This document shows, piece by piece, positions 14,250 through 56,975 of a DNA stretch of 57,153 nt. Under the pieces are notes generated by a model. That model had not been told where the DNA came from and made no database searches. It saw only the letters and a list, made by a program, of their open reading frames with translations. Position 1 is the stretch's first letter. Every line of letters begins with the position of its first letter. The translations under genes were made by a program, and so were the position numbers. Origin of the DNA: Reclinomonas americana ATCC 50394 (taxonomy: Eukaryota); assembly GCA_048213135.1 (NCBI GenBank), contig PS015023.1, positions 30,869 to 88,021 on the forward strand. The letters are read 5' to 3'.

Positions 14250-16293
14250 TTACAACAAGTGTCTGTCGACGGTGCACTCGTTGACGACCAGGCGCCAGTC
14301 TCTCCACTCGGCACTGGGGTGCTCGCCGGAAAAGTGCAGCCAGCCGCGACCCTGCGGTTGGCAGGTGCCGAGCGGGCGCATCTCGTGCAGGCTGCAGTTG
14401 CGGGCCACGTGTGGCGGAGCGACGATCCACACGTGTTCTGGCGGTTCGGGAGCGGGGTCGTCGAAAATGAGCCGTAGCAGTGCTCGTTGTGCCTCGGCGC
14501 ACGAGTGCACCTCCATGAGCCACTCGACCGGTGCACCGCTGTCGCCCTGCGCCAGCGCGCGCGGCAGCAGGTACGTGCCAATGAGTAGCACGGGTTCGCG
14601 CGGATGCTCTGCCATGGCGCGCGCCACAGGCACCACGCCGGCTTGGTGGATGCCGCCCCAGAAGATGAGCAGGCCGGCGTTGAAAATCAGCCACACGACC
14701 ACCAGCCAGCGCGAGGGTGGCGCGTGCGGACAGGCCACCACCACCACCGGCGCCAGCAGCGGCAGCAGGAAGCGTGGCTCTTGATGTGGCGCCACAGACA
14801 GCAGCAGCATACCGCACACCACAATCTGCGCAGAGAGGCGTACGGCGTCGAGGGGCGAGGTGAGTGCACGCCACAGGCGCCAGTATAGCACAATCGCCAA
14901 GGGACCTGCACAGAAGGAGAGAGAGAGAAGGAGAGTGAGCGACTGGGAAGCTGGCGGCAGCACGCGTTGCTCGAGACCGTAGAGCATGGGCATGTTGACG
15001 AGGGCGTGTAAGAAGCGCGGATTGAGTCCGTGCCGTGCCAAGTTGGCCGGGTCCAAGTTGTACAGCAGATTGTTGAGTGGAGTGAGCACCAGGCGGAATC
15101 CCATCGAGGTGCGGAAGAACCACGAGTCGATCGCCACAATGCTCAACGCCGTCCACGCAGCCGCCAGCAGCCATGGCACAATGGCGAATCCTGCACCGCA
15201 AGGCGTCACGAAAATAAAATTGACCGAGGCGCAGAGAAGGGCCAACCCCAACCTGTGTAACGTGCTCGTCGCACCAAGTGCACCAGGAGTGGCAGCGCAA
15301 AGAACACAAACGAGAAACGCGTGAACACGGCAAACGAGAAGAGAGCGCCCAGCGCCACACTGCTGGTCACACTCTGCGTCACACCAATGAGACCACCGAA
15401 GAAAACGACACACAATCGCTCTCTTTTCTCTCTCACCTGCTTCGACGCGAGTGCCGCGCGCAGCAAGAGACACAAGCAGAGCGTCTCAATGCCGTTGGAG
15501 AACGAGCGCGTGAGCAGCGTCAGCGTCGCCCACGACGAGGCCACCAGCAGCGCGGCCCACGGTCGCTGCGCCGGCGTGCACAATCGACGCACAGTGTCGT
15601 CTGTGCCCACCAACAACACGTGAGCAACGTCACAGATACACACAACCACACCGCGGCAGCGCACCGACAACAAACGAGGAGAGCAGGAAGAGCAGGCGAG
15701 AGGCCACCAGCACCGCAGTTGTCGTGTTCACTCGAATGGAAATGAGCAGCATGATCGCAAAAAGAGAGCGAAACAACCAGTCGCTTACCCGACACGCCAG
15801 TGACAGCCTGCACAAGTGGATCCACGAATTCCTGCAGCACATACAACGGAACACCCGCAAAGATCGCTCTGCGCACGCACGAATGTTCCGATCAGAAGGG
15901 GGGAAAAAAGGAATCGCGCTTTTTTTCTCTTTCTCTGTTGGTTATCATCGACAACTCAACGGTGGAACAATCGATCGCGCGGGCGTGTGTCTCGCCTGGA
16001 ACTCCCACGCCACAAAGCGACGTCGACCAGTCGATTGTGGCGCGACAATCTCCACGCTTTGCATGAACTCATCGGCGTGAACGTAGCCCGGTAGCAACAC
16101 GCACGCACTCAACGCACGCACGCACACACAAGTCAGCCAACCAAACACAGAGATCGCTTTCGACGTCGCCACGGCGGCGCGCTCACCAGCGAAGAGCGTA
16201 CAGCGCAACGAGAATCACACGCGCGACGTTGCTTCTCCTGTGCGATGGTGAAGGCAAAGCAGCGCCGTTGCCGTTGACAGCAGCGTGTTTCAT
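14250..16293 (-). CDS. PIGZ: GPI mannosyltransferase 4 (GT22, PIGZ/SMP3 type)
   Basis: PGYVHADEFMQSVE, AWEF, TRSFSNGIET, TPLNNLLYNLDPANLARHGLNPRFLHALVN, PHQEPRFLLP and HQAGVVP. Confidence 0.92.
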
Positions 16294-23256: not shown

Positions 23257-25803
23257 TTATGAGACAGCAGACGAGCCAATGGTGGCCGCAGCCAGGCGCT
23301 GGCCCAGCTCGCGACCGACGTGCACGCACAGCGCACCGCGCAGGCGGACTGGAATGTGTGTGTCGTCACGGCGCCATAATCTCCACTCACTCTCCGGCGG
23401 TCGCGTACCGACAGTCTCGGAGACCCATTGGGTTAGGCGGTCGCCCACATTGTCTTTGTTGCTTTTCGGCAGTTGCCGTCTACCCCCGTCATGATCGTCA
23501 CCGGCCTCGTCGCCCAGCGACCTCCATCCCACATCCACGATTTCCACAGACAGCCACTCGCGAGTGGACTTGTGGAACACCTCGTCACACATCATCGACA
23601 GGAACACACGCAGAATGGACTCCGAGTCTGCCGGTGGTCGCGTGCATCGAATACGCAGCGTGCGTTCGCCAGTGCCCCCAACCATGTTGGCCGTGGCCTG
23701 GTGAAGCAGAGCAGCGGGATCCGTGTGGAATCCGCGCTCCACCGACTCACCCAGCGCCAAATGCGCACTGTGCGGGTCGACGTCAAGCATCGCTCGCACC
23801 AGCACCGCGTACAATCGCCTGCTCGGTCGACACACTGGCGAGTCGACGACCAGAGCACGAAACATGTCCACTGCGCGTTGCGCTTGACCTGCACTAATCA
23901 GGGCCGACATGCATGAGGCCAGCAGCAGGTCGGGACGGTGTAGGGTCGCCAGTGTTCGCCGGCGTGCGTTTGCAAGCCGCTTGAATGCGGTCTCGGCGAG
24001 GACAACTGCCTCGCTGATTTCGCGATTCGCCAGTAGCGCCTGAATCATGGCGCGCAGCACGAGTGGATCACGTTCGGTTGCCGGGCCCGAGCGGAAAAAC
24101 GATCGAGCACGAGCGAGATCACCAACCTGCCGTCGTCGTGAGTCACGTGACAGCACACTCACACTCTCATTTTCTTTCTTCACGTACCTCGCCAAGAGTC
24201 TTGATGCACGCGCGGTGGACGGTGGCACGCAGTTTCCGAGCTTCATCGTGGGGGAAAATGCGTCCCACCAGCGACAACACGCGATCCACGTCGTGTGTCG
24301 TGCCGAGATGGGCGACCGCGTCAAGCAACGACAGCAGCGGCATGTGGGCATTCTCCTTGTCGCACACCACACCGAGCTGCGCCACACACAGTGAGTGTGG
24401 AAACACACACAAGAGAGGTGCCGCGTGCGTGCGTACCTCGTCGGCATACGCAAACGCCTGATCGAGACGGCCGAGCAAATGACAGCCCTTGATGAGGCTA
24501 GTGAAGAGGCCGGTGGTCGGCTGCACGCCGTACGAAGGCAGAAACGTGCGATACACTTCGTCGGCGCGCTGCATTCGACCGCCCTCGCAGCACACATCGA
24601 CCTGCTCACCACTCTCATTGGTACAGGTCTGCAACACAACATTCTGGAGTGACGGCGACGCACCACAATGTTGAAAATGACGGCGTCGGGGAGCACACGT
24701 GACGCCCGCATGTCGTGCACAATGGTGAATGCGTCGTCCACACGACCCTCTGGCACGAGAGCCTTCAGAGCCTGCGCATACATGCGCAAGTCGAGCGTCA
24801 CGCTCAACGCTCTGGCCTCGCGCACCAACCCGGTGACCAAATCACCCCGATCCAGTTCACGACACATCCACAGCAGCGTCTTGTACGTGCTCCCATCGGG
24901 CCTGCATAGCCGTTCAGAGGACCGCAAAGCTCACACACAGGCAACTTCGCGTACACACCTGTGCAAGTGCGCCACCTGTTGTGCAGGGCGATTTGTTTCA
25001 ACACGAAAAGCTCAAGTCACCTAAGCATCAAAACACAACGCACCAGCTGTTCCGGTCTGCTGCTGAGCATGTCACGGTACATGGCCATCGCCTGAGTTAC
25101 GTCGCGCTGCGATCGCCACAGTGCGCCCACCACCGCATTGTTGATACCGACTGTGGACTGCGCACCCGGCCCCATGCTCTGCAGCGTGTGCCACACATCG
25201 ATAACTCCCATGAGACTGCCGAGTTGCAGGTGCGCGTTGATGGCCAGGCTGAAGACGGAGGCGCTCACGGGTGGCGCCTGGCCCTGCACGCACACAGGTA
25301 CCCCACATCAGCATCGCCATCATCAACCATGGCGCAGTGAGTGGGGCAGAGGAGAGACCATCAGCAGTGGTGCCGACTGAACCATGGCGTCGTACAGGCG
25401 CAAGGTTTCGCGGTAGAGTGACGACTGATTGAGCGACTCCATCAGCGACACCACACGAGCACTTGCATCGTGCACCGAAAGCGTCGACGAGGAGCTCTGA
25501 CACAGCGAGCTGATGCAATCAGTCATCACACAATGCACACGCACTCGCGCTGATGCAGAGTGCACACACCGCAGTTGGTCGATGCAGGAGCAGTGTGTGC
25601 ATCTGCGCTGCGAGTTTCCTCAACCGACTGGAGCGCAGCAGCAGTGAGCGATAGAGAGAGAGTGTGTGAGAAAGACAACTCCTCGGAGACCTCTGTTCAG
25701 CGTCGTCGGGCTTTGTGGCGATCGTGTCGTGTTTGGCTCGACTGCTGGCAGCACGCACACCGATGCTCCATCTCTGTGTGCATCGGGTGACCAGCAGGAG
25801 CAT
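23257..25803 (-). CDS. Pentatricopeptide-repeat protein, probably mitochondrial, with a possible degenerate C-terminal Smr-like domain
   Basis: PPR units PDGSTYKTLL, DLRMYAQALKALVPEGRVDDAFTIVHDMRASRVLPDAVIFN and PTTGLFTSLIKGCHLLGRLDQAF. Arg/Ser-rich N-terminus MLLLVTRCTQRWSIGVRAASSR. Confidence 0.8.
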
Positions 25804-25861: not shown

Positions 25862-29344
<3,483 letters not shown>

Positions 29345-42926: not shown

Positions 42927-43316
42927 CTTGTCGGCGACGTCGGCTGTTGCTGTGGCTGGTGGGTGGCGGTGGGTGGTGGTGGTGGTGGTGGTGGTGGTGG
43001 TGGTGGTAGTAGTACGGCGAGAGCAGCAAGTGAACTGGGCAGAGGGAGGGAGGGGGAGAAAGGAGGGAGTGAGGGAGGAAGTGGTCAAGAATTGTTGCGA
43101 AGTCGATGATATGCAAGCTGGGCAGACCAACATTTGTGGGTTGTGGTGGGCGAGTGATCAGCACGACTGGCAAGCTGCTGGTCTTGTGTGTATGTCTCAC
43201 AGGAAGCGATGGAACAGTGGTCGCGCGCGGGATTCTATTGTCTCGACTATACATTCTAATGTAACACCTCCACGTGTGCAGGCACTCCTGCCTGTGCGCG
43301 CGCTCACCCGACAACC

Positions 43317-44555
43317 TCACAGCAACGTGCATCTGCTTGACCTCCTATTCTGCTGCGACTCCGTCGGCGACTGCGGGCTGGGATCGTCACCGACTGCGCG
43401 ACGCGGGCGCATGGTAATCGCCTCCACCGCCAGCTGCAATGCCAACTCAAACACGGCTTTCACGCCGACCCCAGTCAAGGCACTGCATGCGCGGAAGACG
43501 ATGAGTGCGTGCACACGGATTCACGAGCAAGCAGTGAGCTGTGTTTCCAGAACCTGCACTCCAGATACTTGGCGGCCTTCACCTTGACTGCCAAGGCTCG
43601 CCCAGCCTTCTCCATCACGAGTGCCGAACTCGTGCCATCTCGCAGGTCGGCTGAGAGGGTATCGCTGCGTGCGTCAGTCACTTGCACCACTGAAACGCAA
43701 GACACCAATGGCGTCTACCTTTTGTTCCGACGAGGATGATGGACGCCTGTGGGCAGTGGGTTTTGAGCTCTGGAACCCTGGATGAGTGCGTGCGGTTAAG
43801 CAAGTCAGAGAAGAGTACGAGGAGTGTGCCGATCTCGCTCACCACATTGAGGTGATGTGCTCGACAGAGGTGGGATCATCCTGCTCGCCAACAGTCAGCA
43901 TGGCGCGAGAGACAAAGAGAGACAAGTGCATGCGCAAATCCACACCAAAGCAAAGCAAGCGAGGACCACGTGCGTGGACGGGTACTGTAATGCATACAAC
44001 AGGTCAGTGCATTCGCACGACGCAACGCGAGGAGGCGAAGACGGATCATGACAGCGCACCGACAATGGTCTTAGCCGCCGGAACCTCTCGTGATCGTTCG
44101 TGTCCTGCATGAGAGAGAAGGCGGAATGCAACGAGAGCGACAGAGAGAGCGACGGCGATCACAAAAACCACGTCAGAATAGTGTTTGGGTTCACGACTCT
44201 TCTCAAAGCTGCATAAACGCTTGCTCACCCACACACCGACTATGTAGTCGCCAACATTGACCGTGGCAGTGCTGTGGCGTGCGTGAGACAGGAGCTGGAG
44301 GCGACTGAATGACATTTTTCCGACAATGATCATGATATCAACATGCATGCACACACCTCTCAACAACGTCCGTGGGTGGAATGTCGAGTTGGAATTTGTC
44401 TTCTGTGTAGCGCACCATCAGAGATGTCTGCGGGAGGGACGAGTGTGCGTGTGAATGTGTGAGTGTGAGTATGCGTGAGTGACGGGAGTGGCGTGGTGAA
44501 CCTTGCCGACTCCGTTGTCGCCCACAATGACGATCTTGACGGGGGTTGATGCCAT
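43317..44555 (-). CDS. Atypical Rho-family GTPase (G3 motif lost), CAAX CTLL, 9 exons
   Basis: MASTPVKIVIVGDNGVGKTSL...IPPTDVVES...[30 protein letters not shown]...IILVGTKADLRD...KYLECSALTG...SRCTLL*. Frame intact across all junctions. Confidence 0.88.
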
Positions 44556-44744
44556 CTTGCAGGCGGCTTGAGTACCACACACAACGCAGCGAGAAACTCA
44601 ACACGGTGGATCCCGTCAGTCGATCGATCCTGCAGAATCCGAGCGTGTACTTCTCTGCAGCCTCATTTACCAGGCGGTGCATCCGTTTATACGCATAGTA
44701 TAGGCGCGGGCACATGTATATGCATGCAACTCAACCACGCTTAT

Positions 44745-44912
44745 AATTATGCGGTGAAGATCGCAGTTCTCGACTACTTGCTTGAAGCTCCGACACACCC
44801 ACACACTGAACCTGCTGCCTCCTCATGATTGGTATCTGTGTTGATGTTTTGGATGTGGTTGGACTTGGTCATTGAGACAGCTGTTTGCTTGTTTGTTGGT
44901 GAATGAATTGTT
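44745..44912 (+). repeat. Dispersed non-coding repeat between Rho paralogues
   Basis: Alignable by eye to 21010-21172. Confidence 0.8.
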
Positions 44913-45156
44913 GTCGCACGGCATGTCTTGATCACGCGATCGCACGCCAGCATGCCATCTCGACTTTTTCTCGTTTTTCCGGTGATGTCTGAGTTTCTGG
45001 TGCTCTCTCAAGATAGTGATCATCATGCAGCTGTGTTGCTGTTTGGATTAGAAAGTTGTTGTTGTTGTTGTTGTTGTTGCTTTCGGGATCGATATCCATC
45101 TCTTCTATCATGCACTCCTTCGAATATGTACATCTCCATACGCTCCCCCGACAAGC

Positions 45157-45871
45157 TCACAGCAACGTGCATCGTCTTGACCTCCTATTCTGCTGCAACT
45201 CCGTCGGCGACTGTGGGCTGGGATCGCTCCGTGACCGCTGTGCTCTGTCAGGCGCAATAATCGCACCCCCCGACGTCTTCGTCTGCCGTGCCGACGATCC
45301 ACCGACTGTGCGACTGCTCTCCATCACCTCCACCGCCAGCTGCACCGCCGACTCCAACACGGTCTCCACACCGACTCCAGTCAAGGCACTGCAGCAATGG
45401 TGAGCGACAGAGCGTGTGTGCATGGACTCGCAAGCATCGTTGTCGTAACCTGCACTCCAGGTACTTGACAGCTCGCACCTTGGTGGCCAAGGCCTGCCCG
45501 GCCTCTGCGGTCACTTGTGACGTGCTGGTGCCATCTCGCAGGTCGGCTGCGAGGCAGCGTGCATCGGTCAATATTTTGCACGCCTGACAAGACAACTGCG
45601 AATGATTGGAGTACCTTTTGTTCCAACAAGGATAATGGACGCCTGTGGGCAGTAGTGTCTGACCTCGGCAACCCTGTACAGGAGTGCGTGTAATTGAGCA
45701 AGCCGAAGAGTGCGAGGACCTGGCAAGGAAATAGGAAGAGCACACTACTGGAGTGTTCTCTGTCGCACGCCGTCTCCCCCGATGGTCAACACATCGTGTG
45801 TGGGATATCAGCGGCTTTGTGTTTTTTCGGTCCACGCCGTGCGGCCTCGCTCGGTAGGAGCAGGAATGTGC

Positions 45872-45960
<89 letters not shown>

Positions 45961-46550
45961 CTCATCTACGTACGTACGTCGTACGTACGTACGTCGTACG
46001 TACGTACGTACGTACGTACGTACGTACGTACGTACGTACGTACGTACGTACGTACGTACGTACGTACNNNNNNNNNNNNNNNNNNNNNNNNNNNNNNNNN
46101 NNNNNNNNNNNNNNNNNNNNNNNNNNNNNNNNNNNNNNNNNNNNNNNNNNNNNNNNNNNNNNNNNNNNNNNNNNNNNNNNNNNNNNNNNNNNNNNNNNNN
46201 NNNNNNNNNNNNNNNNNNNNNNNNNNNNNNNNNNNNNNNNNNNNNNNNNNNNNNNNNNNNNNNNNNNNNNNNNNNNNNNNNNNNNNNNNNNNNNNNNNNN
46301 NNNNNNNNNNNNNNNNNNNNNNNNNNNNNNNNNNNNNNNNNNNNNNNNNNNNNNNNNNNNNNNNNNNNNNNNNNNNNNNNNNNNNNNNNNNNNNNNNNNN
46401 NNNNNNNNNNNNNNNNNNNNNNNNNNNNNNNNNNNNNNNNNNNGGGTAGGTAGTTACGTACGTCGGTCGTTTCGTTCGTTTTTCGGTTTTCCGTTACCGT
46501 CCGTCGTCGGCCGTCCGTCCGTCGGTACGGTAGGACGAGGAAGTAGTGTC

Positions 46551-46623
<73 letters not shown>

Positions 46624-47362
46624 TTCCTCACTTACCACAGCGAGGTAACGTGCTCGGCAGAGGTGGGGTTATCCTGCTCTCCAACAGTCAGCATGGCTCG
46701 AGAGAAGAAGAGAGAGAAGTGAAAGTCCGCACCAGAGCAAAGCACACAAGGAACACGTGCGTGCCCGGGTACTGTCAGTCAACAACAGTTGTCAGTGCAA
46801 GACGCAACGCGGGGAGACAGATCATATCAGCGCACCGATATCGGTCTCAGTCGCCGGTACTCCTCTTGACCGGCTGTGTCCTGCAGCGATGAGGGAAGAC
46901 ACAGCACAACGCGAGAGTGAGAGAGTGAGAGAGTGAGAGAGTGAGAGAGTGAGTGAGAAACGTGTTCCGTTCGAAATGCAAGTCTCTTCGCACAGCTGCA
47001 TGAACGCTTGCTCACCCACAGACTAACTTCCTGGTCGCCGACCTTGCGCGCAAAGTTGCTGTGCGTGTGTGCGTGGCGTGAGACAACACGAATGGCGACC
47101 AAAAATGACATTGTTGTCCGCCAATCCATCACGCGCACGCGCACACGCAACTCAATCACTGTGGGTGGAATGCCGTGCTGGAACTCGTCCTCCGTGTAGC
47201 GCAGCACCAGCGAGGTCTGTGGGGGGAGAGAGAGAGGAATGCGTGTGAATGCGTGTGTCATGCGTGTGGGGAAGTGTGAGTGTCATGGTGGGTCACCTTG
47301 CCGACGCAGCTGTCGCCGACAATGACAAGCTTGGCGACTCCGTCTTTGATAGTTGAGGTCAT
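45157..47362 (-). CDS. Rho-family GTPase with Ser at position 12, CAAX CTLL (spans a gap), 9 exons
   Basis: KLVIVGDSCVGKTSLVLRYTEDEF...PPTVIDNF...[28 protein letters not shown]...LVGTKADLRD...YLECSALTG...RRCTLL*. Confidence 0.92.
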
Positions 47363-47485
47363 TGGTGTCAGTGGTGTCCGCGTGTGGTGTGGTGGGAAAA
47401 CAGAAACGGGAAACACGTCTTGTCTGTCAGGTTCTAGAATTCTGACTGTGATATCCGACGTGAATTCATTCTTTCACAATCTCTC

Positions 47486-50400
47486 TTACTTGTACAAAGC
47501 GCCCTCCGAATCAGGGAGAAATGACCCGATCACACGAACAAGAATGCCGCACTGCCGCCCGAGGACCTCGGTTGGAAGTCCATCATTGTCACTTGCCATG
47601 GACCACACCCGCACCGTCTTGTCGTCACTGCCGCTGACAATGTGGTGCCCGTCGGGAGTGACAGCCACAGATCGCACCCACTGCGTGTGCCCCTCCAACC
47701 GTCGCACTTCCTCGCCACTCGCTAGTGACCACACTCGCACAGTCATGTCATCGCTGCCACTGATTATGTGTTGGCCGTCGGGAGTGACGACGACCGACCA
47801 CACAAACCCAATGTGTCCTCGCAACCGACGCACTGCCTCGGTGTGATTTGTCAGCGACCACACGTGCACGGTCTTGTCCTCGCTCCCGCTGACAACGTGC
47901 TGTCCGTCGGGAGTAACAGCGACAGACCACACAATGTCGGTGTGCCCCTCCAACTGTTGCGTTTCCTCGCCACTCGCCAGCGACCACACGCGAACGGTTT
48001 TGTCGAGACTTCCACTCACAACGTGCTGTCCGTCGGGAGTGACAGCCACCGACGATACCGCATCCGTGTGCCCCACCAGTCGTCGCACCTCTTCACCACT
48101 CGCCAGTGACCACACTCGCACCGAGTTGTCTTTGCTGCCACTGACAACGTGCTGACTGTCGGGCGTGACGGCGACTGAGTACACCATGCTCGTGTGTCCT
48201 TGCATACGATGCACTTCTGTGCCACTCGCCATGGACCACACTCGCACGCTCATGTCTGTGCTCGCGCTCACGAGGTGCTCACCGTCGCGAGTTACGGCCA
48301 CGGAAGTCACCCAGTCAGTGTGCCCCACGAAGCGTCGCACTTCTGCACCATTCGTCATTGACCACACACGAACCGTCCGGTCATCGCTGCCACTCACGCA
48401 GTGCTGACCATCGGGGGTGACGGCGACAGACAAAACCTGTGCCGTGTGCCCATCCTGCGGCTTTCTCGGCCACGTCACACCCGTCACATCCGCCCCTCGA
48501 AAGTCGGCCTCCCTCGCGAATGCCATGCACAGGTTCACACCTCGCAGATCGGCTCCTCTCCACACCGTCTTGTGCATCACCGCATCCCTCAGATCTGCCC
48601 CCCTGACTCGCACGCCCGACAGGTCTCGCCCACTGAACGGAACCTCCGCAAGACATAGTGCACTGGCCGCACTCGATGCCACATGAGCAATTCTTGCTTC
48701 CGTGCGCGACATCTCAATGGCATTCCACAGCACGTCGTGCAGCGACGAGTCGGCACGCACCTGTTCGGCGATGAAGGACAGGATGGAGTTGAGACCCTGC
48801 GAACAGGAGGGAAAAAGAGTGAGCTGTGCATTGCGAGGAATCTGACAGCTACTGTACCCCACACTCACCTCATCCGACGTGAGCAACACCCGTTGACCGC
48901 TAAAGCTACAGCACAGGCTGTCGACTCGATCCTGCAGAGTGGACAACAGAGACAGCTGGTGAGCAGGCGCGCCATCCTGCCACAAGAGGCAGGCTTACCT
49001 CCAGTTCAACTCCCGGATCGGCCAGAATCCGCACGTCAGCTAGCCACGACTGCGCGGCAAAATACTCCAACACCGACTTGTGCATGAATTCCACGCGTTG
49101 CTGTGACATCCCCAACCTGCTCCACCTCAGCAATGCCTGCAATCGAGTCGCTATGAGGAAACTTCCGTGCAAAAGGGACGCAATATTTACGCAACAGCGC
49201 GGGCAAGGGAGTTTTGCGACGGATCGTCACGATCGAACCACTTGGCCCACAGTTGCTGCTCAGCAATCGAGCGCTGCACACGGAGAATGGACGGGAGAAT
49301 GAGATGCCACAGCGCGACCAGACTTCAAGTAGCGCGCACACCTCCAACATGCCAGCGCCCTGCCGCACAGACGTCAGCGAGTATTGCATCATTTCGCTGG
49401 CAAGGTCCGAACAGAAATCCCACACACGACGGCAGAAAGTCTCCGTTGATTCCTCGTCGCCGTAAATCTGCGCACAAAAGGCGAGATCATAAATGCACAT
49501 ACTGTGTGTGTGTGTGGAACACATACACATCCAGCAGCAAGCAAGCACACCTGTCGAATGTTCACGTGGTGATGCTCAAACTCCCAACGCAATTTGCGAT
49601 TGGCAAACGCCTCGTACAATTGTGTTCGAGTCACTCGCATCATGGAAGCGTCACCACCGCTGGCCTTGAGGCGTTCCAGATCCTCCGTCACCAGCACGAT
49701 CATGTTGAGCATCAGTGGCTGCATGCAGGAGGCACAGTAGATGCGTGAGGATGAAGCAAGGGCAGTCACCAAGAGGCGGGACACAGCTCACCGACGACGC
49801 CAGTCCTTCCAATCCGGGAGTCTCATCAATCACTTGTTTGTGCTGTTGCCACGAGCGCGGATGGTCCACGCGCGATACCACGAACCTACATGCTCGTGAG
49901 AGAGAGAGCCAGCAGCAAGGGAGATGAGTACATGAAAGTAACTTTTGCAGAAAGAGCTCGACGTCGTCCTTGGAGAAGAGGCGCAGCATGCATCGAGCCA
50001 GCGTGCGCTCCGGTTGGTTGAACAGTGCCTCGCGCGACAGCCGTGGGTTCACTGGCACAAAGTGCTCTTCGGCCCAGAAATTGCCGAGGCGGTTGATAAA
50101 CTCGCGGCGCACTGAGACCACCAGCAGAACATTCGGCCAACTCTGCATGAGAAGTTGAGGACGAGTTTGTTGTTATGTATGGAGCTTTTGTGGCGAGTCA
50201 CGCAACGTCCAGGTCGTGGATGACAAACAAGTTGCCGGGTGGCTCACCACACTCGTCGTATCCATCGAGAACCAGCACAACGGTACCAACGCGGCGGAGC
50301 TGTACAGCACATTGGTTGTCAGGCGTCGGAGTACACACACACAGAGAGAGAGAAGAAAATGGCTACCTCATCCTCCGTCACTTGCAGCAGCGCATCAGCC

Positions 50401-51301
50401 ACTGCTTCGTTTGCCTCCTGGAGGAGGTAAGGCAGTAGCGCTCCTTGTCTGCGCAGTACGTCCTCACGAGGAATGCTGGAGAGTCGAGCCGACAACACCA
50501 GGGTGTTGTCGCGCTTGTGCAGGCGGGTGGTCAGCTGTCGCAGCAGCACGGATTTGCCGGAGCCGGACCAACCGGCCACCACCAGAACCTGCACAACAAA
50601 CGACCCAACAAGAAAGCGCGCGCGTTACTGCATGTGTGTGTACACACTCAATGTTACACAAGTGAATAGACAGCAGCAGCACCTTATCCGTCGGCTTCAC
50701 GCGGTTGACAAACTTGTCCAGTAGTTCGTCGGCCAGTAGCGCCGTCGCGCGACCTCCGGCAGAGTCGGCCTCTGATGTAGTTGCGTTGGCCCAGAGAGGA
50801 ACCTATGAGTGTCAGCAGCCAGTGTGTCAGTGTGCAAGCCAGATCAAGGCGCGACGGTAGCAGCTGCGACGACAACGCAACGAGACACTCGACGGCAGCG
50901 AGGTTGTTGGGGTCATTGGCTGCCGGCAAGACCGCCTTGACGTCGGAAGCTTCGTGGAAAGCGTCGATCTTGATCTGCAACGGCGACCTGAAGGCCAGTT
51001 CACCACTGCTAATGTATGCTCCAGCCAACGGAGAGCTGGGCGGTCGTGGTCGGGGACTTCCGTCAAGAGCTGCTCCGCAACGCGACGCTCCGCAACCACC
51101 GCCTCGAAGGGCGGGACGCGTGTGCCTGTGTCGAAATCGATGACGAGCACCGCCGCTGAGTTCAACAACAAGAGTGAGTTTGTCATTGCACGGATGCCGA
51201 CCACGATCGCGACTTCTCACAGTGTGCACAGAGGGAGACAAGATGCGGCTCCCCTCTCTCTCTCGCGTACTGATATTGTGCATCGCCACTTGCCATGCCA
51301 T
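47486..51301 (-). CDS. NLR-like STAND protein: NACHT-type NTPase + pentapeptide repeats + 7 WD40 repeats (start uncertain)
   Basis: Walker A VAGWSGSGKS, Walker B VLVLDGYDE, LLVVSVRREF (sensor 1), QPLMLNM, FMHKSVLEYFAA (winged helix), pentapeptides (ADLRDA, ADLRGVNL, ADFRGADV) and seven GH...VAVTPDG..SGS.D.TVRVW repeats. Confidence 0.88.
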
Positions 51302-51829
51302 GCGTGCACGACAGACTGCACAGTGCCGCCCGCACCCTGGGCCACTCTCACTGACGACAACAAGGACATGCAGAGCCCTTGAAATCCCACAAGAAAACGC
51401 ACCTGCCCAGTGGCAAATTCGAATCTTTTGCATTCCCGAGCTGTTCGCCACCCCGCGCAATAGGCGACACGACTCGCGAGCACGGATCTCCATCCAGGGC
51501 ACTCTCAGTAGTCACTGTCACAAAGGTGGGCGCACACGGTCGGAGAGTCATCGTGGTGAGAGAAATGCGCATCTCTCTCTGTGGGTGCGATTATTCGAGT
51601 GGTTTTGGTGGGTTTCGCACAATTTCGTTTTGGTGCCTTCAGGCCAAGTGTCCGCAGACGGCTTACCTAATTGCAGAAAAAGGGGTGAGCAATGACTGCT
51701 CCGACGTTGACTCATTTTCCACTTACATCGCAGCTTCGAAACGGGCGGAAATCCGAAGTGGAGCAGAAAGGCAGCAACAATGGCGACTATCGTCTCTTGA
51801 GTTCTGTTCTTCACTTCACCCTCCATTAT

Positions 51830-54099
51830 CTACAACAGCGTGCAAAACGAGCCCGGCGGCTTGCGTATCGGCTCCATCGACACGAGCACCACACTCTCGA
51901 ACACGGCATCCACGCCTTGGCCAGTCTTGGAGCTGCAGAGATAACAGTGAGACAACAATGCGAGTCACCCTTCTCGCGCTCTTCGCAACGCACCTGCACT
52001 CCATGTACTTGGCGGCCTTCATCCGCTTGGACAGTGCCAGACCCTCGGCAAACGAAATATGTCTGCGGTTCCCGTCTTCGCGCAAATCGCCTGTGACGCG
52101 GGTGGAGGTGTGTAAGAACGCGATACTGGTAGTACGGAAAAATGGATGCATTTGTCGCTCACACTTGGTGCCGACCACCACGATTGGCACGCCCTGGCAG
52201 TGATGACTGATCTCACGGTACCTGCGTCCAACAGTCAGGCCCTCCGTGGAGCATATTAACACAGGTATTTTTGTACGAACCACTTGGTGCCGAGGTTGTC
52301 GAAGCTGTCCTTGTTGTTCTGCGGTCGTGGGGGAAGGGGGAGTAGTGAGCAATCGACGATTGGAAGAGAAGGTGCTACCAAGAGGAAAGACAGAGAGAGA
52401 AACCCGGGGAGAGAGGGGGGTAAGAGAGCATGAGAGAGAATGAGAGAAGACAGCAGAGAAAGACGGAGGGAGAGAGAGAGAGGATGAGCAAGAGAATGAG
52501 AAAAAGAGCGGGCAAGAGAGCAAGAGAAAAGAGACAGGGCAAGAGGGAGAGAAGCAGAGAAACCCGGGGAGAGAGGGGGCAAGAGAGAAAGAGGGAGGGA
52601 TAGAGAGTGGGGAGGCAAGGGAGGAAGAACAAGAGAGAAAGAATGTGTGTGTGAGAGAGAGAAAGAGAGCAAGAAAACAGAGACTGAGAATCGCCCTCCA
52701 GACGCACCACAGAAAAGCACATGAGGATGACCTTGGCGCCCGGATACTGCGCGTACACACTTTTCGTGAGAGCGATGCAACATAGACCACGCGACGAGGG
52801 AAGGACGCCAAACCGAGAGTGGTCGCAGCCGATCATACTCCTCTTGGCCGGCCGTATCCTGGTCAGCAAGTGCATGCGTTAGTTTCTTCCACAAACTCTG
52901 CCTGTACTTCCACTGATCTCGCAAATGACTCTCGCGAAAGCGATCCCTCATGGCACACTCCTGCATCGTTCCCTTCTCTCGTGATCTCCGGCAAGTGACA
53001 GCGCACGAGAACGTTGTGTGAGCATGTGAGCTGCTAACGCCTCACTTTCCCAAGTCAATGCAGCCACGTCAGTCTTTCCCTCCCGACTGTCGATCGTCGT
53101 CACGCGGTTCACATTAACACAGCGCACAATCATCTCTCAGCAGCCCCCTCTCGTCGTGCCATCAGCTCAAGTCTTCCCCTATGCCTGCATCTCCCTCTTG
53201 ACTCTCGCACTCAAGCGACAGCAAAGCATACCAGGAGAGCATCTCAACTGCCCACGCCTCATCGCGCGAACGCATGATCATCTCTACGAATCGTCGCACT
53301 GCATCTCCCGATCGCCGACAAGCGACAGCACACTAGCACACCAGGAGAGCATCTGGACTGTACATGCCTCGTCGTGCAGACGCAAACTCCCTGCCACGAA
53401 TCGTCGCACTGCATCTCACATGCCTGTATCTCCTTCTTCACTCTCGATCACCGACAAGCGACGGCACACCAGCACACCAGGAGAGCATCCCTCGACAGCC
53501 CACGCCCCATCGCGAAACCGCACGATCATCACTGCACATGCTCCACGAATCGTCTCACACGCCCACTTGAAAGACGATCACAGTCGCCAGCTCAGCGCAC
53601 AATAACCTCCCAGCTACCCACGCCTCTTGATAGTCAACCACAATCACGCCACTCCTTCTCACTCCCATCTCTGACAAGAAAAACGCCAACTGGCGTCCTC
53701 CGCCACGAGCTTTTTCTGTCTCCATCACTCACACAACACATCTCTCTTCCCCACCCAGCACACTCACCCACAAGTTCAACAGCTTGCCTTGAATGCTCCT
53801 CGTCACATTGCTGCACAATCACTCACGCAGTCACATCTCTGCCTCCCAAACACACACACACACACACTCTCTCTCTCCACGCGACGCAACTCAATCACAG
53901 TCGGCACATGTTCCTCAGGGAACGGCTTGCCAGTGAACACCGACACCAGTGATGTCTATGTGTGCGCGTGTTTGTGTGAGAGAGAAAGAGACAGAAAGAG
54001 TGGAGACAGTGAGGACACGCACACCTTTCCAACAGCACCATCACCGACGACAACACACTTGAGAGCACCCTCTCTGCTTCGTCCAGCTGCAGCGGCCAT
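51830..54099 (-). CDS. Rac-like Rho-family GTPase with canonical G-boxes, CAAX CTLL, 9 exons
   Basis: LKCVVVGDGAVGKTSL...FPEEHVPTVIDN...[32 protein letters not shown]...PIVVVGTKCDLRED...KYMECSSKTGQGVDAVF...FCTLL*. Confidence 0.94.
53150..53590. repeat. Intronic tandem repeat, about 3 units
   Basis: Repeated acaagcgac.gcacac.agcacaccaggagagcatc and acgaatcgtcgcactgcatctc. Confidence 0.8.
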
Positions 54100-54298
54100 G
54101 GCTTTCTCTCTCACACAGTTTGAGAACGAATCGTGATGATTGCGTCACGACACACAGGACAGATTCTTTTCGGATAATGTCAATGCTCATGTTTGTTTGT
54201 TTTGTTTAGCATCCCTGCTGGTTTTTTTCCACTCCACCTCCACCCCTTCCCTCTGTGTCTGTGTGGTCTTCTTCTGCGACTGTTAAAAATCGCTTTCT

Positions 54299-55018
54299 TC
54301 AGAGCAGCACACACTTGGTCTTGCCGGGCTTGGGCGGCTTGCCGCTCGGCTTGCCTCCCGACGGCGACGACGATGAGGGTGCGAGGATGCAGCGGATCAC
54401 AGCGTCGAAGACGTTCTTCACGTGGTCGCCCGTTCTGTGAGTGGAGGCGTCGTCAGATAAGCAGGGAAAGGGTGGCAATTATGAAGGAAAGAAGTCAGCT
54501 GTCTCTCTCTCCCTCGCTCTCGTTCTCTCTCTCCCCCACGCACAAGAACGCCCGCACAGATACTAGTAATATCCACAGGCTAGCGCGACACAGAGAAGCG
54601 TGCTGACATACAGCGCTCTTTCCCTCGCGAGTTGCGCACGAACACTCTCTTCCACTCTCGCCCACACAAGGAAAGAGTCTCAGCAGTAGCATCCGCAGGC
54701 AACACAACATAAAGAGCCGCCTTACACGCGCGCGAACACTCTCTCCTTTTCTCACGATCACAAAGGACGACGTACGCAGTAACATTCGCAGGCAAATGAA
54801 CACTTAACACACGCGAAGTACTTACTCTCTCTTCCTTTCCATTACACACAAACGTCCGCAGGAAACGCAGCACAATGAGCTCTCTCTCTCTCTCTCTCTC
54901 GCAAGAAAGTATGACGACCACACTGCCGCGAAGGCTAATGTTGACACCCACACACAAAAGCCCCCAGCGCACACGCACAAGCACACTCTCTCCGCAACAC
55001 AATGGGCTGCGTTCGTAG

Positions 55019-55069
<51 letters not shown>

Positions 55070-56309
55070 CAATTCACACTTCGTTTGCTCCGCCACTGCT
55101 TCATTCAGAATCTGGCCACGCCTCCCTCTCTCATCTCTCTCTCTCTCGCTCGCTCGCTCGCTCGCTCTCTCTATTATTCTTCCTCTTCTCAATCCCTCTA
55201 TCTCATTTGCCCTCTCACCAACTCCTTTGCCCTCTCACTGTTGCCCTCTCACCCTTTCCCTTTGCCCTCTCCCCCTTCCCCCTTCTCCCTCCTCACCTTC
55301 ACGAGCACCAACGACTCATGACCCGCGCCATCGAGGTTGCCAACCACACTCGGCGCCTCGACCACATTCTGGAACTCCAGCTGCATGGCCGGCACCAGGC
55401 TGCGCAGCATCTCCTGACGCATGAGGCACGACTGCGTGTTGGCCAGCAACTGCCGCATGGCACTCATGCCGCAGCTGCGCAGCACGGCGCGGATGCGACG
55501 GTGACGAATGGCCGTGCGCAGCTACAGATGCACACCCAGAATCAGCACGCTTTTCGACACACAGCGACATTCTCTCTCCCTCTTCTCTCTCCCTCCCTCT
55601 CCCTCCTTCTCTCTCACACACCCTTTTGACACTCTCTCCCCCCACCTCCTTCCCTGTCTCTCTCTCTCCCTCTCTTCCACACTAACCTGCGCAAGCGGCA
55701 CGGGACTGCCGATAAAGTTGACAACGTGGCGCCACACTTGACCGAACAAGTCCTCGTCACTGGCACCGGCACGACGCAGGCTGCGCCACGCCAGCGCCAC
55801 GGAACGCGCATGTCGCTGCTTGTCCGTGAGTTGCTCGACGCGGGACGCGGTAACCGACGGCGTGCTGGGCGTCTGCGACGTGGCCTGCACGAAGAAGAGA
55901 GAGAGTTCATACGCCGCACACAACAATTGCGATTTTACAGCCGCACACGCAACTGCCAGGAAGGGAGCCAGCTGACTGAAGAAGAGAGCCTTGTCGACGA
56001 CTTGCTCGCAAATGACCACGTACAAATCGCTGCACATAGATGTCAGGCAAACGAAAGAAACACACAATTTGCACACCACATCACTCAACGTCGGTGCCAC
56101 GGCCTCCTCTTCCTCCGTCAGCTTGCTGCGCGCTTGCTGGTAACGCTGCATGAGCCACTTTGGCAGCTTGCCGGCGACCAAACGCCAGCAACGCATGATT
56201 GCCTCGGACGGATGCGAATCAACGGCCGAGTAGCTGAACATGACGGCCTCGGAGAGCAGCTGATTGTGCTGCAGCACGGCGGCGAAGACGGCGCGGACGG
56301 CGGCGGAGA
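54299..56309 (-). CDS. 3' part of a helical protein (HERC2/ZZEF1-like segment), apparently ending in a Rho-type C-terminal exon (CAAX CVLL); 5' end not seen
   Basis: Exons SAAVRAVFAAVLQHNQLL..., LRTAIRHRRIRAVLRSCGMSAMRQLL..., ILNEAVAEQTK (55111-55080, phase 2), then 54434-54299 TGDHVKNVFDAVIRCIL...KPGKTKCVLL*. Confidence 0.6.
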
Positions 56310-56975
56310 CTGAGAAGGGAAAGAGTGGTCAACAACAGAGTGACGGAAGAGGGGGAGAGAGAGGGGAAGAGAGTGGATGAAAGCGAAGGAAGCGAATAGA
56401 GCAACGAAGAAAAAAGAGTTGCCTTGAACTGGAGAGAAGATAGGAGACGACATGCAATGAGCGAGAACAATGTACCAATTAAGGGGTGCTGGAAGATGTA
56501 AACAACGGACGCGAGGAGGTTGTGTGACGGTGCGAAGAGAGAAGGGTGATTCAAGAGGACACGATGTTGAGAAATGCAAACAACGGGCGTGAGGAAGAGG
56601 GACATGCGAATGTCAAAAGATGAATGCCAGGAATATGATGTGTAATGCAAAGAAGACGAGATGTGAATGATGAAAAAGATCGAGGAGAGTCTCTGGAACG
56701 ATTAGAGAAGAAAACAGAGAGACAGTTGTCTTGAACCCAACATTACACGCTGTTGAGAATCAGCAAAAACTGAAGTGAGTGAACAAGCAAGCGAGGGACA
56801 GCCAGACACGACGCGCGCGCACACACACGCACAACACACGCACACACACACACACAGAAAAACAGAACGAAAGGGAGACACAGAAAGACATAAATATATA
56901 TATATACACACACATGCACACGCAGAGAGAAAGACACACAAACAGAAAACAGAACGAAAGGGAGACACAGAAAGA

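Follow-up and report, generated by a model that had tools for sequence, protein, structure and literature searches.

We analyzed a 57,153-nucleotide stretch of Reclinomonas americana ATCC 50394 (GenBank assembly GCA_048213135.1, contig PS015023.1; hereafter the window), in which a gene for a STAND-type receptor lies within a run of Rho-like GTPase genes. The window is draft eukaryotic sequence with 8 N gaps and a GC content of ~0.53 to 0.62 outside the gap-containing stretches, and the introns of the genes that we modelled are mostly 57 to 135 nt long. In minus-strand order, the locus consists of an orphan Rho-type tail exon, Rho-like gene A, the STAND receptor gene, and Rho-like genes C and D. 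The features are as follows.

54299-54434, minus strand: orphan Rho-type terminal exon, with an alpha-5-like segment, a Ser/Pro/Lys-rich tail, and CVLL followed by a stop codon
51830-54099, minus strand: Rho-like gene A, 9 exons, 187 amino acids (aa)
47486-51186 (approximate), minus strand: STAND receptor gene, 12 exons, ~960 aa
47590-48431, minus strand: WD40-coding repeat array, ~6.7 copies of 126 nt, 70% matching (tandem repeat finder)
45157-47362, minus strand: Rho-like gene C, 9 exons, 227 aa
43317-44555, minus strand: Rho-like gene D, 9 exons, 203 aa

Intergenic distances are short: 199 nt between the tail exon and gene A, 643 nt between gene A and the receptor (a figure that depends on the receptor model), 123 nt between the receptor and gene C, and 601 nt between genes C and D. 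The initial annotation of this DNA, made from the sequence alone, had listed a tail exon, three Rho genes, and a NACHT-pentapeptide-WD40 gene on the minus strand, and our gene models bore out this set. When the remainder of the window was searched with a hidden Markov model (HMM) of A, C, and D and by a scan of open reading frames (ORFs), no further Rho-like exons were found.

Gene D was modelled by hand from a three-frame reading of the minus strand, and its exon phases then guided an automated search for the exons of C and A. Each of the three models has GT-AG boundaries at 8/8 introns and no internal stops. Exons 3 to 8 measure 43, 45, 39, 38, 59, and 97 nt in A, C, and D alike; thus, intron positions and phases are common to the three genes. 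All three proteins end in the CAAX box CTLL, whereas the orphan exon ends in CVLL. Gene C additionally encodes a long Ser/Arg-rich tail, and gene D has two extra residues in switch I. The shared intron positions and CTLL ends described in the initial annotation were therefore confirmed by the exon lengths and the translated models. Its description of the array as progressively degenerate applied to the G boxes only, since all three ORFs are intact. The exons of gene A, on the minus strand, are as follows.

Gene A exons: 54099-54025, 53955-53891, 53810-53768, 52858-52814, 52746-52708, 52318-52281, 52221-52163, 52090-51994, 51932-51830

Two of the introns contain additional sequence features. 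Intron 3 of gene A (909 nt) includes a 110-nt tandem repeat at 53212-53417 (1.9 copies, 80% matching) and, 30 nt upstream of exon 4, a second exon-3-like sequence at 52928-52889. This copy is preceded by AG, has no GT donor, and reads in frame across the 30 nt into exon 4; its resemblance to exon 3 of gene C exceeds that of shuffled sequences (score of 8, reached by 0/500 shuffles). This sequence may represent either an exon relic or an alternative exon. Intron 6 of gene C contains the assembly gap 46068-46443. The gap is flanked on one side by (TC)n and (TACG)n arrays (45873-46067), and a second (TC)n array begins ~100 nt past its other edge (46552-46613).

We then asked which residues of the Rho switch are retained, using the numbering given by alignment to a canonical Rac-like database protein, P0135. 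The states at the diagnostic positions are as follows.

Position 32: H in A, I in C, I in D
Thr35: retained in A, C, and D
Position 37: I in A, I in C, V in D
G1: GDGAVGKT in A, GDSCVGKT in C, GDNGVGKT in D
G3: DTAGQE in A, DTAGQE in C, DTNDHE in D

Gene A keeps canonical G1 to G5 boxes and carries the substitutions Y32H and F37I. Gene C carries G12S, A13C, Y32I, and F37I, with DTAGQE intact. Gene D carries G12N, A13G, A59N, G60D, and Q61H; it keeps the GxxxxGK[S/T] pattern of G1 and has lost the DxxG glycine of G3. The Rho insert region, which usually comprises ~13 residues between G4 and G5, is 9 residues shorter in all three proteins than in Rac1 and P0135. In each of these respects, the alignment to P0135 agreed with what the initial annotation had reported: canonical G boxes in A, G12S in C, and a dead G3 in D; replacement of Tyr32 (by H, I, and I) and of Phe37 with retention of Thr35; and a shortened Rho insert throughout.

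Database searches placed the three genes within the Rho family. An unspliced stretch of gene A spanning exons 7 and 8 (P0121) matched 55 distinct PDB sequences at an E value of ≤0.01, and 55/55 were of the Rho family, among them Rac1 (the best match, 1e-5), Rac2, Rac3, RhoG, yeast RHO1, and engineered Rac1 fusions. Genes C and D aligned exon by exon to the Rac-like P0135 in tblastn, and a read-through of exons 2 to 4 of gene C gave 0 PDB matches. An exhaustive protein search with P0121 returned 11 matches; of the 10 that were inspected, 9 were Rho fragments of 90 to 188 aa and 1 (P0124) was an unrelated repeat protein. With P0123, a Rho fragment, as the query, 9 matches were obtained; identities were ≤49% for the best of those that cover most of the query, and one closer match, P0142 (79% identical), extended over only 31% of it. 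A word-index search with P0121 gave 18 candidates, none of which scored. Another database protein, P0127, clusters as Ascaris RhoU. Neither word-index nor exhaustive searches of protein databases recovered a close relative of full length for A, C, or D. A, C, and D are best read as Rac-derived Rho GTPases that make up a lineage-specific short-insert subtype.

In the exhaustive search with P0121, two long repetitive proteins, P0122 (4,736 aa) and P0124, ranked first and third. Both match residues 31 to 63 of the query, which are partly intron coded, and P0124 consists of repeats of a motif resembling GNRRH.DFAE. These two matches are probably spurious.

Short-insert Rho proteins have precedents among protists and fungi. 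Amoebozoa have accepted Rho proteins with no insert or a short one, such as Entamoeba EhRho1, which lacks the insert and has changes in switch I (PMC8305917). EhRho1, the database fragments P0123 and P0126, and the yeast-type proteins P0137 to P0141 resemble A, C, and D in having Rho-type motifs with the insert missing or shortened. The likeness is closest for the public fragments P0123 and P0126, which have the same 9-residue deletion, and P0123 has in common with gene A an almost identical DLREDGN..H..FA.G loop. The difference lies in the overall relationship: the database relatives of A, C, and D are only fragments or are no more than 49% identical over most of the query.

A second comparison is with the Rnd and RhoH proteins of animals. 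Rnd proteins are described as GTPase dead through substitutions at the positions of RhoA Gly14, Ala61, and Gln63 (PMC6696182). Gene D is substituted at all three of the equivalent Rac positions (Gly12, Ala59, and Gln61) and gene C at position 12; as in Rnd and RhoH, the CAAX end is kept and the remaining fold is conserved. Unlike these proteins, the genes in the window are missing most of the Rho insert, and their switch I residues are noncanonical. A further distinction concerns G3, because Rnd proteins keep the DxxG glycine, which D loses (G60D). Orthology to the animal proteins is unlikely, since the Rnd and RhoH groups arose within Metazoa, as stated in PMC8305917.

What would these proteins do? 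Gene A, with all of its G boxes kept, probably cycles as a normal switch. The products of C and D are most likely noncycling atypical Rho proteins, because they are substituted at positions where Rnd proteins are GTPase dead (position 12 in C; positions 12, 59, and 61, plus G60D, in D), and D could be a pseudo-GTPase. C would be expected to bind GTP with poor hydrolysis, and D to show weak nucleotide binding or none. From the terminal Leu of their CAAX boxes, all three proteins are predicted to be geranylgeranylated and anchored in membranes. C and D might then act through their abundance and location rather than through GTP turnover.

We next compared C and D with each other. The two proteins are 69% identical, with 0.45 synonymous (dS) and 0.20 nonsynonymous (dN) substitutions per site and a dN/dS ratio (omega) of 0.44 (Z of 3.8). 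Omega was 0.40 (Z of 4.0) in the G domain, 0.50 in switch I-II, and 0.94 in the tail (32 codons). No region of the C-D comparison had an omega of ≥1, and there was no sign of positive selection. A dN/dS analysis of switch I/II had been proposed in the initial annotation; run here for the C-D pair, it gave the value below 1 just cited. The introns of C and D can still be aligned, with identities of 0.69 to 0.88 versus 0.58 to 0.65 for shuffles (7/8 introns; the gap-bearing intron 6 was skipped). Gene A is much older, with 41 to 45% identity to C and D and a nearly saturated dS of ~1.3. When A served as the outgroup, 16 changes were assigned to the D lineage and 8 to the C lineage, and 31 were ambiguous; the difference in rate between the lineages was not significant (relative-rate chi-square of 2.67).

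We also simulated neutral decay of D, with substitutions only and indels ignored. The ORF and splice dinucleotides of D survived in 0.5% of 5,000 runs at a distance (d) of 0.1 substitutions per site and in 0/5,000 runs at a d of 0.225. C and D are tandem duplicates under purifying selection and are not neutral relics. The initial annotation had named neutral evolution of the divergent Rho genes as something that would count against its reading; the omega values of 0.40 to 0.44 (Z of 3.8 to 4.0) and the simulation show otherwise. Based on the G-domain omega and on the intactness of D against the neutral simulation, we regard D as a maintained gene whose constraint is relaxed for a small GTPase.

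One potential alternative is that D, and perhaps C, was recently inactivated and is becoming a pseudogene, so that the array consists of decaying duplicates. The destroyed G3 of D, the nonglycine residues at position 12 of C and D, the 16 changes on the D lineage versus 8 on that of C, and the tail omega of 0.94 are what such decay would leave. Yet D has retained its ORF, its start, its stop, and 16/16 splice dinucleotides after diverging from C by a dS of 0.45, a degree of preservation expected in <0.5% of cases under neutrality, and neither the G-domain omega (0.40; Z of 4.0) nor the nonsignificant relative-rate test (chi-square of 2.67) fits with decay. We consider ongoing pseudogenization unlikely. 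These genes add to the atypical Rho proteins a set with a short insert and noncanonical switch I residues, one of which has a destroyed G3 and is still under selection.

The 3' ends of C and D differ from the rest of the two genes. Their last 86 nt (45141-45226 versus 43301-43386), which comprise the end of the tail, the stop codon, and ~16 nt beyond it, are 93% identical, compared to ~70 to 72% for the remainder; dS is 0.14 over the final 23 codons versus 0.50 in the G domain. This identity suggests either gene conversion or constraint on a 3' element.

The gene between A and C is of a different kind. Our model of the receptor has 12 exons encoding 960 aa, with GT-AG at 11/11 introns. The exons from position 50588 downward are secure, and the three upstream exons (51186-51082, 50974-50882, and 50802-50683) are tentative because two frame changes in that region allow more than one way of joining the exons. 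The protein begins with an N-terminal region of ~105 aa, followed by a NACHT-like nucleoside triphosphatase (NTPase), pentapeptide repeats, and seven WD40 repeats. Pfam, which at this locus was run on single exons or unspliced stretches only, recognized the WD40 repeats in 7 stretches (261.8 bits) and the pentapeptide repeats at 36.5 bits (cutoff, 20.2). The P-loop exon alone scored below all curated cutoffs (NACHT, 19.2 against 26.7 bits; AAA_16, 32.3 against 32.6; nSTAND5, 27.1 against 34). In a set of 120 sequences, receptor residues 104 to 463 aligned to residues 492 to 822 of a bacterial protein, P0109, with an E value of 1.9e-14, and residues 495 to 652 of P0109 are a NACHT domain by Pfam (54.8 bits). 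A Walker A motif, a Walker B motif (hhhhDGxDE), and a C-terminal motif of the F.HKS..EY.AA type follow one another in that order, all within this alignment. We take the receptor as a NACHT-like STAND NTPase because the part of P0109 to which it aligns is NACHT, which is transitive evidence. The designation as a NACHT-pentapeptide-WD40 receptor in the initial annotation thus stood, through Pfam for the two repeat types and through P0109 for the NTPase.

No Pfam family was found on the 275-aa ORF at 50684-51511 that would indicate an N-terminal effector or adaptor domain, in a region whose exon structure is uncertain, and Pfam gave no match to a HET domain upstream of the P-loop. A search with residues 1 to 185 of the last exon against longer proteins gave 213 matches, most of them to generic pentapeptide proteins and none to the receptor protein itself.

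The WD40 repeats are 42 to 43 residues long, and their variation is concentrated in 6/43 columns, each with 4 to 6 different residues, while the rest are nearly invariant. At the DNA level, the repeats are 70 to 74% alike by self-BLAST and tandem repeat finder. A few variable positions on a constant scaffold suggest a diversified ligand-binding surface. A similar design is found in the fungal HNWD proteins, which combine NACHT with closely similar WD40 repeats that vary at few positions per repeat. The receptor differs from them in having no HET match, in having pentapeptide repeats, and in the identity of its WD40 DNA repeats, which is only 70 to 74%; HNWD repeats are much more alike.

Proteins with the same arrangement as the receptor exist in other lineages. 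P0109, from a bacterial endosymbiont of Mortierella, likewise has an NTPase, then pentapeptide repeats, and then a WD40 propeller, and it aligns to the receptor repeats as well (35 to 39% identity). The amoebozoan protein P0091 (Soliformovum irregulare) has the same domain order, but its length is double that of the receptor and its N-terminal part is ARM-like. In contrast to proteins of this type, the gene in the window has 11 spliceosomal introns and a short N-terminal region without a known domain. For NTP-dependent bacterial conflict systems, PMC7159879 lists pentapeptide and beta-propeller repeats among the types of repeat that occur. The locus adds an intron-bearing eukaryotic member to the NACHT-pentapeptide-WD40 proteins, and the gene would encode a sensor-type STAND NTPase that is unrelated to its Rho neighbors.

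Is there any link between the receptor and the GTPases beyond their location? The receptor stop (47486) and the ATG of gene C (47362) share a reading frame and are separated by only 123 nt, with two stops between them. A GTAAGA sequence that resembles a splice donor overlaps the receptor stop codon, and 24 in-frame GT...AG candidate introns would join the receptor to gene C. These features would favor a signaling module, in which the receptor and the Rho genes are coregulated and the GTPases act downstream or as membrane adaptors, perhaps by way of a common transcript or of a fusion between the receptor and Rho C; so would the fact that Pfam recognized no effector domain in the receptor itself. 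The candidate acceptors and the donor at the stop codon score below all of the known introns, and two neighboring genes have a one-in-three chance of sharing a frame. We therefore give this explanation little credence.

Candidate fusion introns were scored with matrices trained on the 33 known introns of the locus. Splicing of the receptor to Rho C was unsupported: 24/24 acceptors scored ≤1.2, compared to a known-intron minimum of 3.0, and the donor at the receptor stop scored −0.4, compared to a known-intron minimum of 1.7.

Other signs of a functional connection were also looked for. A comparison of the receptor N terminus with A, C, and D for a motif of the HET-s/NWD2 style gave scores of 26 to 35, within the 95th percentile of shuffles (33 to 38). 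Self-BLAST showed that the similarity between C and D is confined to the gene bodies, with no receptor relic beside D, so that the C-D duplication carried no receptor sequence. A metagenome scan for orthologous loci returned two contigs only, of 1.5 and 2.5 kb and without neighbors, which were uninformative. The receptor is tied to the GTPases by position and spacing only.

Could the arrangement nevertheless be a guard/decoy module? In such a module, the WD40 surface would watch the membrane-anchored Rho paralogues, an idea for which adjacency is the basis. C and D would be nonfunctional baits for pathogen effectors that modify the Rho switch, and their modification would lead to oligomerization of the receptor. 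Consistent with this possibility, the receptor and the Rho genes are adjacent, co-oriented, and closely spaced; D lacks G3 and is under selection all the same; the changes on the D lineage cluster in switch I-II; and the WD40 repeats contain a few highly variable positions. Guarding of RhoA activity by pyrin is established in animals (review PMC11781737) and provides a precedent. The resemblance to pyrin and NOD1 goes no further than the general idea that an innate sensor responds to the state of Rho; the sensing of RhoA activity by pyrin is indirect, and pyrin is not known to be linked to Rho genes. No Rho decoy paralogues are known for pyrin or NOD1, and a guard/decoy literature search turned up nothing on this point, with no search aimed at NLR-Rho gene linkage.

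Several results argue against the guard/decoy module. The receptor has no recognizable N-terminal signaling domain (Pfam, on the 275-aa ORF mentioned above). Effectors target Tyr32, Thr35, and Gln61 of the Rho switch, and D has lost two of these three. None of the three proteins has Tyr32 or Phe37, and D also lacks Gln61, so that only Thr35 is kept throughout; with these replacements, A, C, and D are poor mimics of the surface that effectors target. The switch I-II omega of 0.50 gives no indication of positive selection, and a very large scan will occasionally turn up a single adjacency of this kind by chance. In our judgment, a guard/decoy relationship is improbable, and the more specific proposal, that the receptor and GTPase-dead C and D baits form one immune unit in which the variable WD40 surface reads modification or sequestration by effectors, is very improbable. 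If it were true, the locus would be a genetically linked small-GTPase guard/decoy system outside plants and animals; guarding of the Rho switch, known from animal pyrin, would have arisen independently with dedicated decoy paralogues, and the locus would offer a compact system for its study.

We think it probable, with some reservation, that these are four separate genes linked by position only, that is, a coincidental or merely regional colocation of atypical Rho paralogues and a STAND sensor. Some of our data do not sit easily with a coincidence. All genes of the locus are on one strand, and the 123-nt same-frame gap between the receptor and C could reflect shared transcription. Ten of the 16 D-lineage changes are concentrated in columns 46 to 70 of the alignment, a segment that runs from the end of switch I to switch II; this cluster equally fits adaptive change at an interaction surface or loss of switch function. 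For a housekeeping small GTPase, an omega of ~0.4 is high.

The upstream end of the locus carries what is read as the remnant of a fourth Rho gene. The tail exon (54434-54299) encodes 45 residues, and the phase of its AG acceptor matches that of exon 9 of A, C, and D. In a single BLASTP comparison, 11/14 residues were identical to the alpha-5 region of P0123 (E value of 1e-5). The exon was also the best ORF outside the three genes in a search with the HMM of A, C, and D, in which it aligned to the matching profile positions with an E value of 0.22 among 1,666 ORFs. A search of PDB with the tail exon gave no Rho protein and two chance matches to Integrator subunit 5. No partner exons were found upstream of it by HMM, ORF scan, or tblastn.

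Also upstream of the tail exon, a stretch at 54647-54594 has a weak Rho-like EC-S.AT..GK.AV pattern and is matched by two Rho fragments at E values of 0.33 and 4.4. It may be debris of a lost Rho gene, or it may be due to chance. Pfam assigns no family to the next upstream gene (55522-56328), whose only Atlas neighbors are weak, helical-repeat-like ones at low recognition.

Elsewhere in the window, three minus-strand ORFs resembled, by eye, an exon of a glutamyl-tRNA synthetase (28399-28590), a GPI-mannosyltransferase-like membrane protein (14250-15485), and a helical-repeat (PPR-like) protein (23257-24930).

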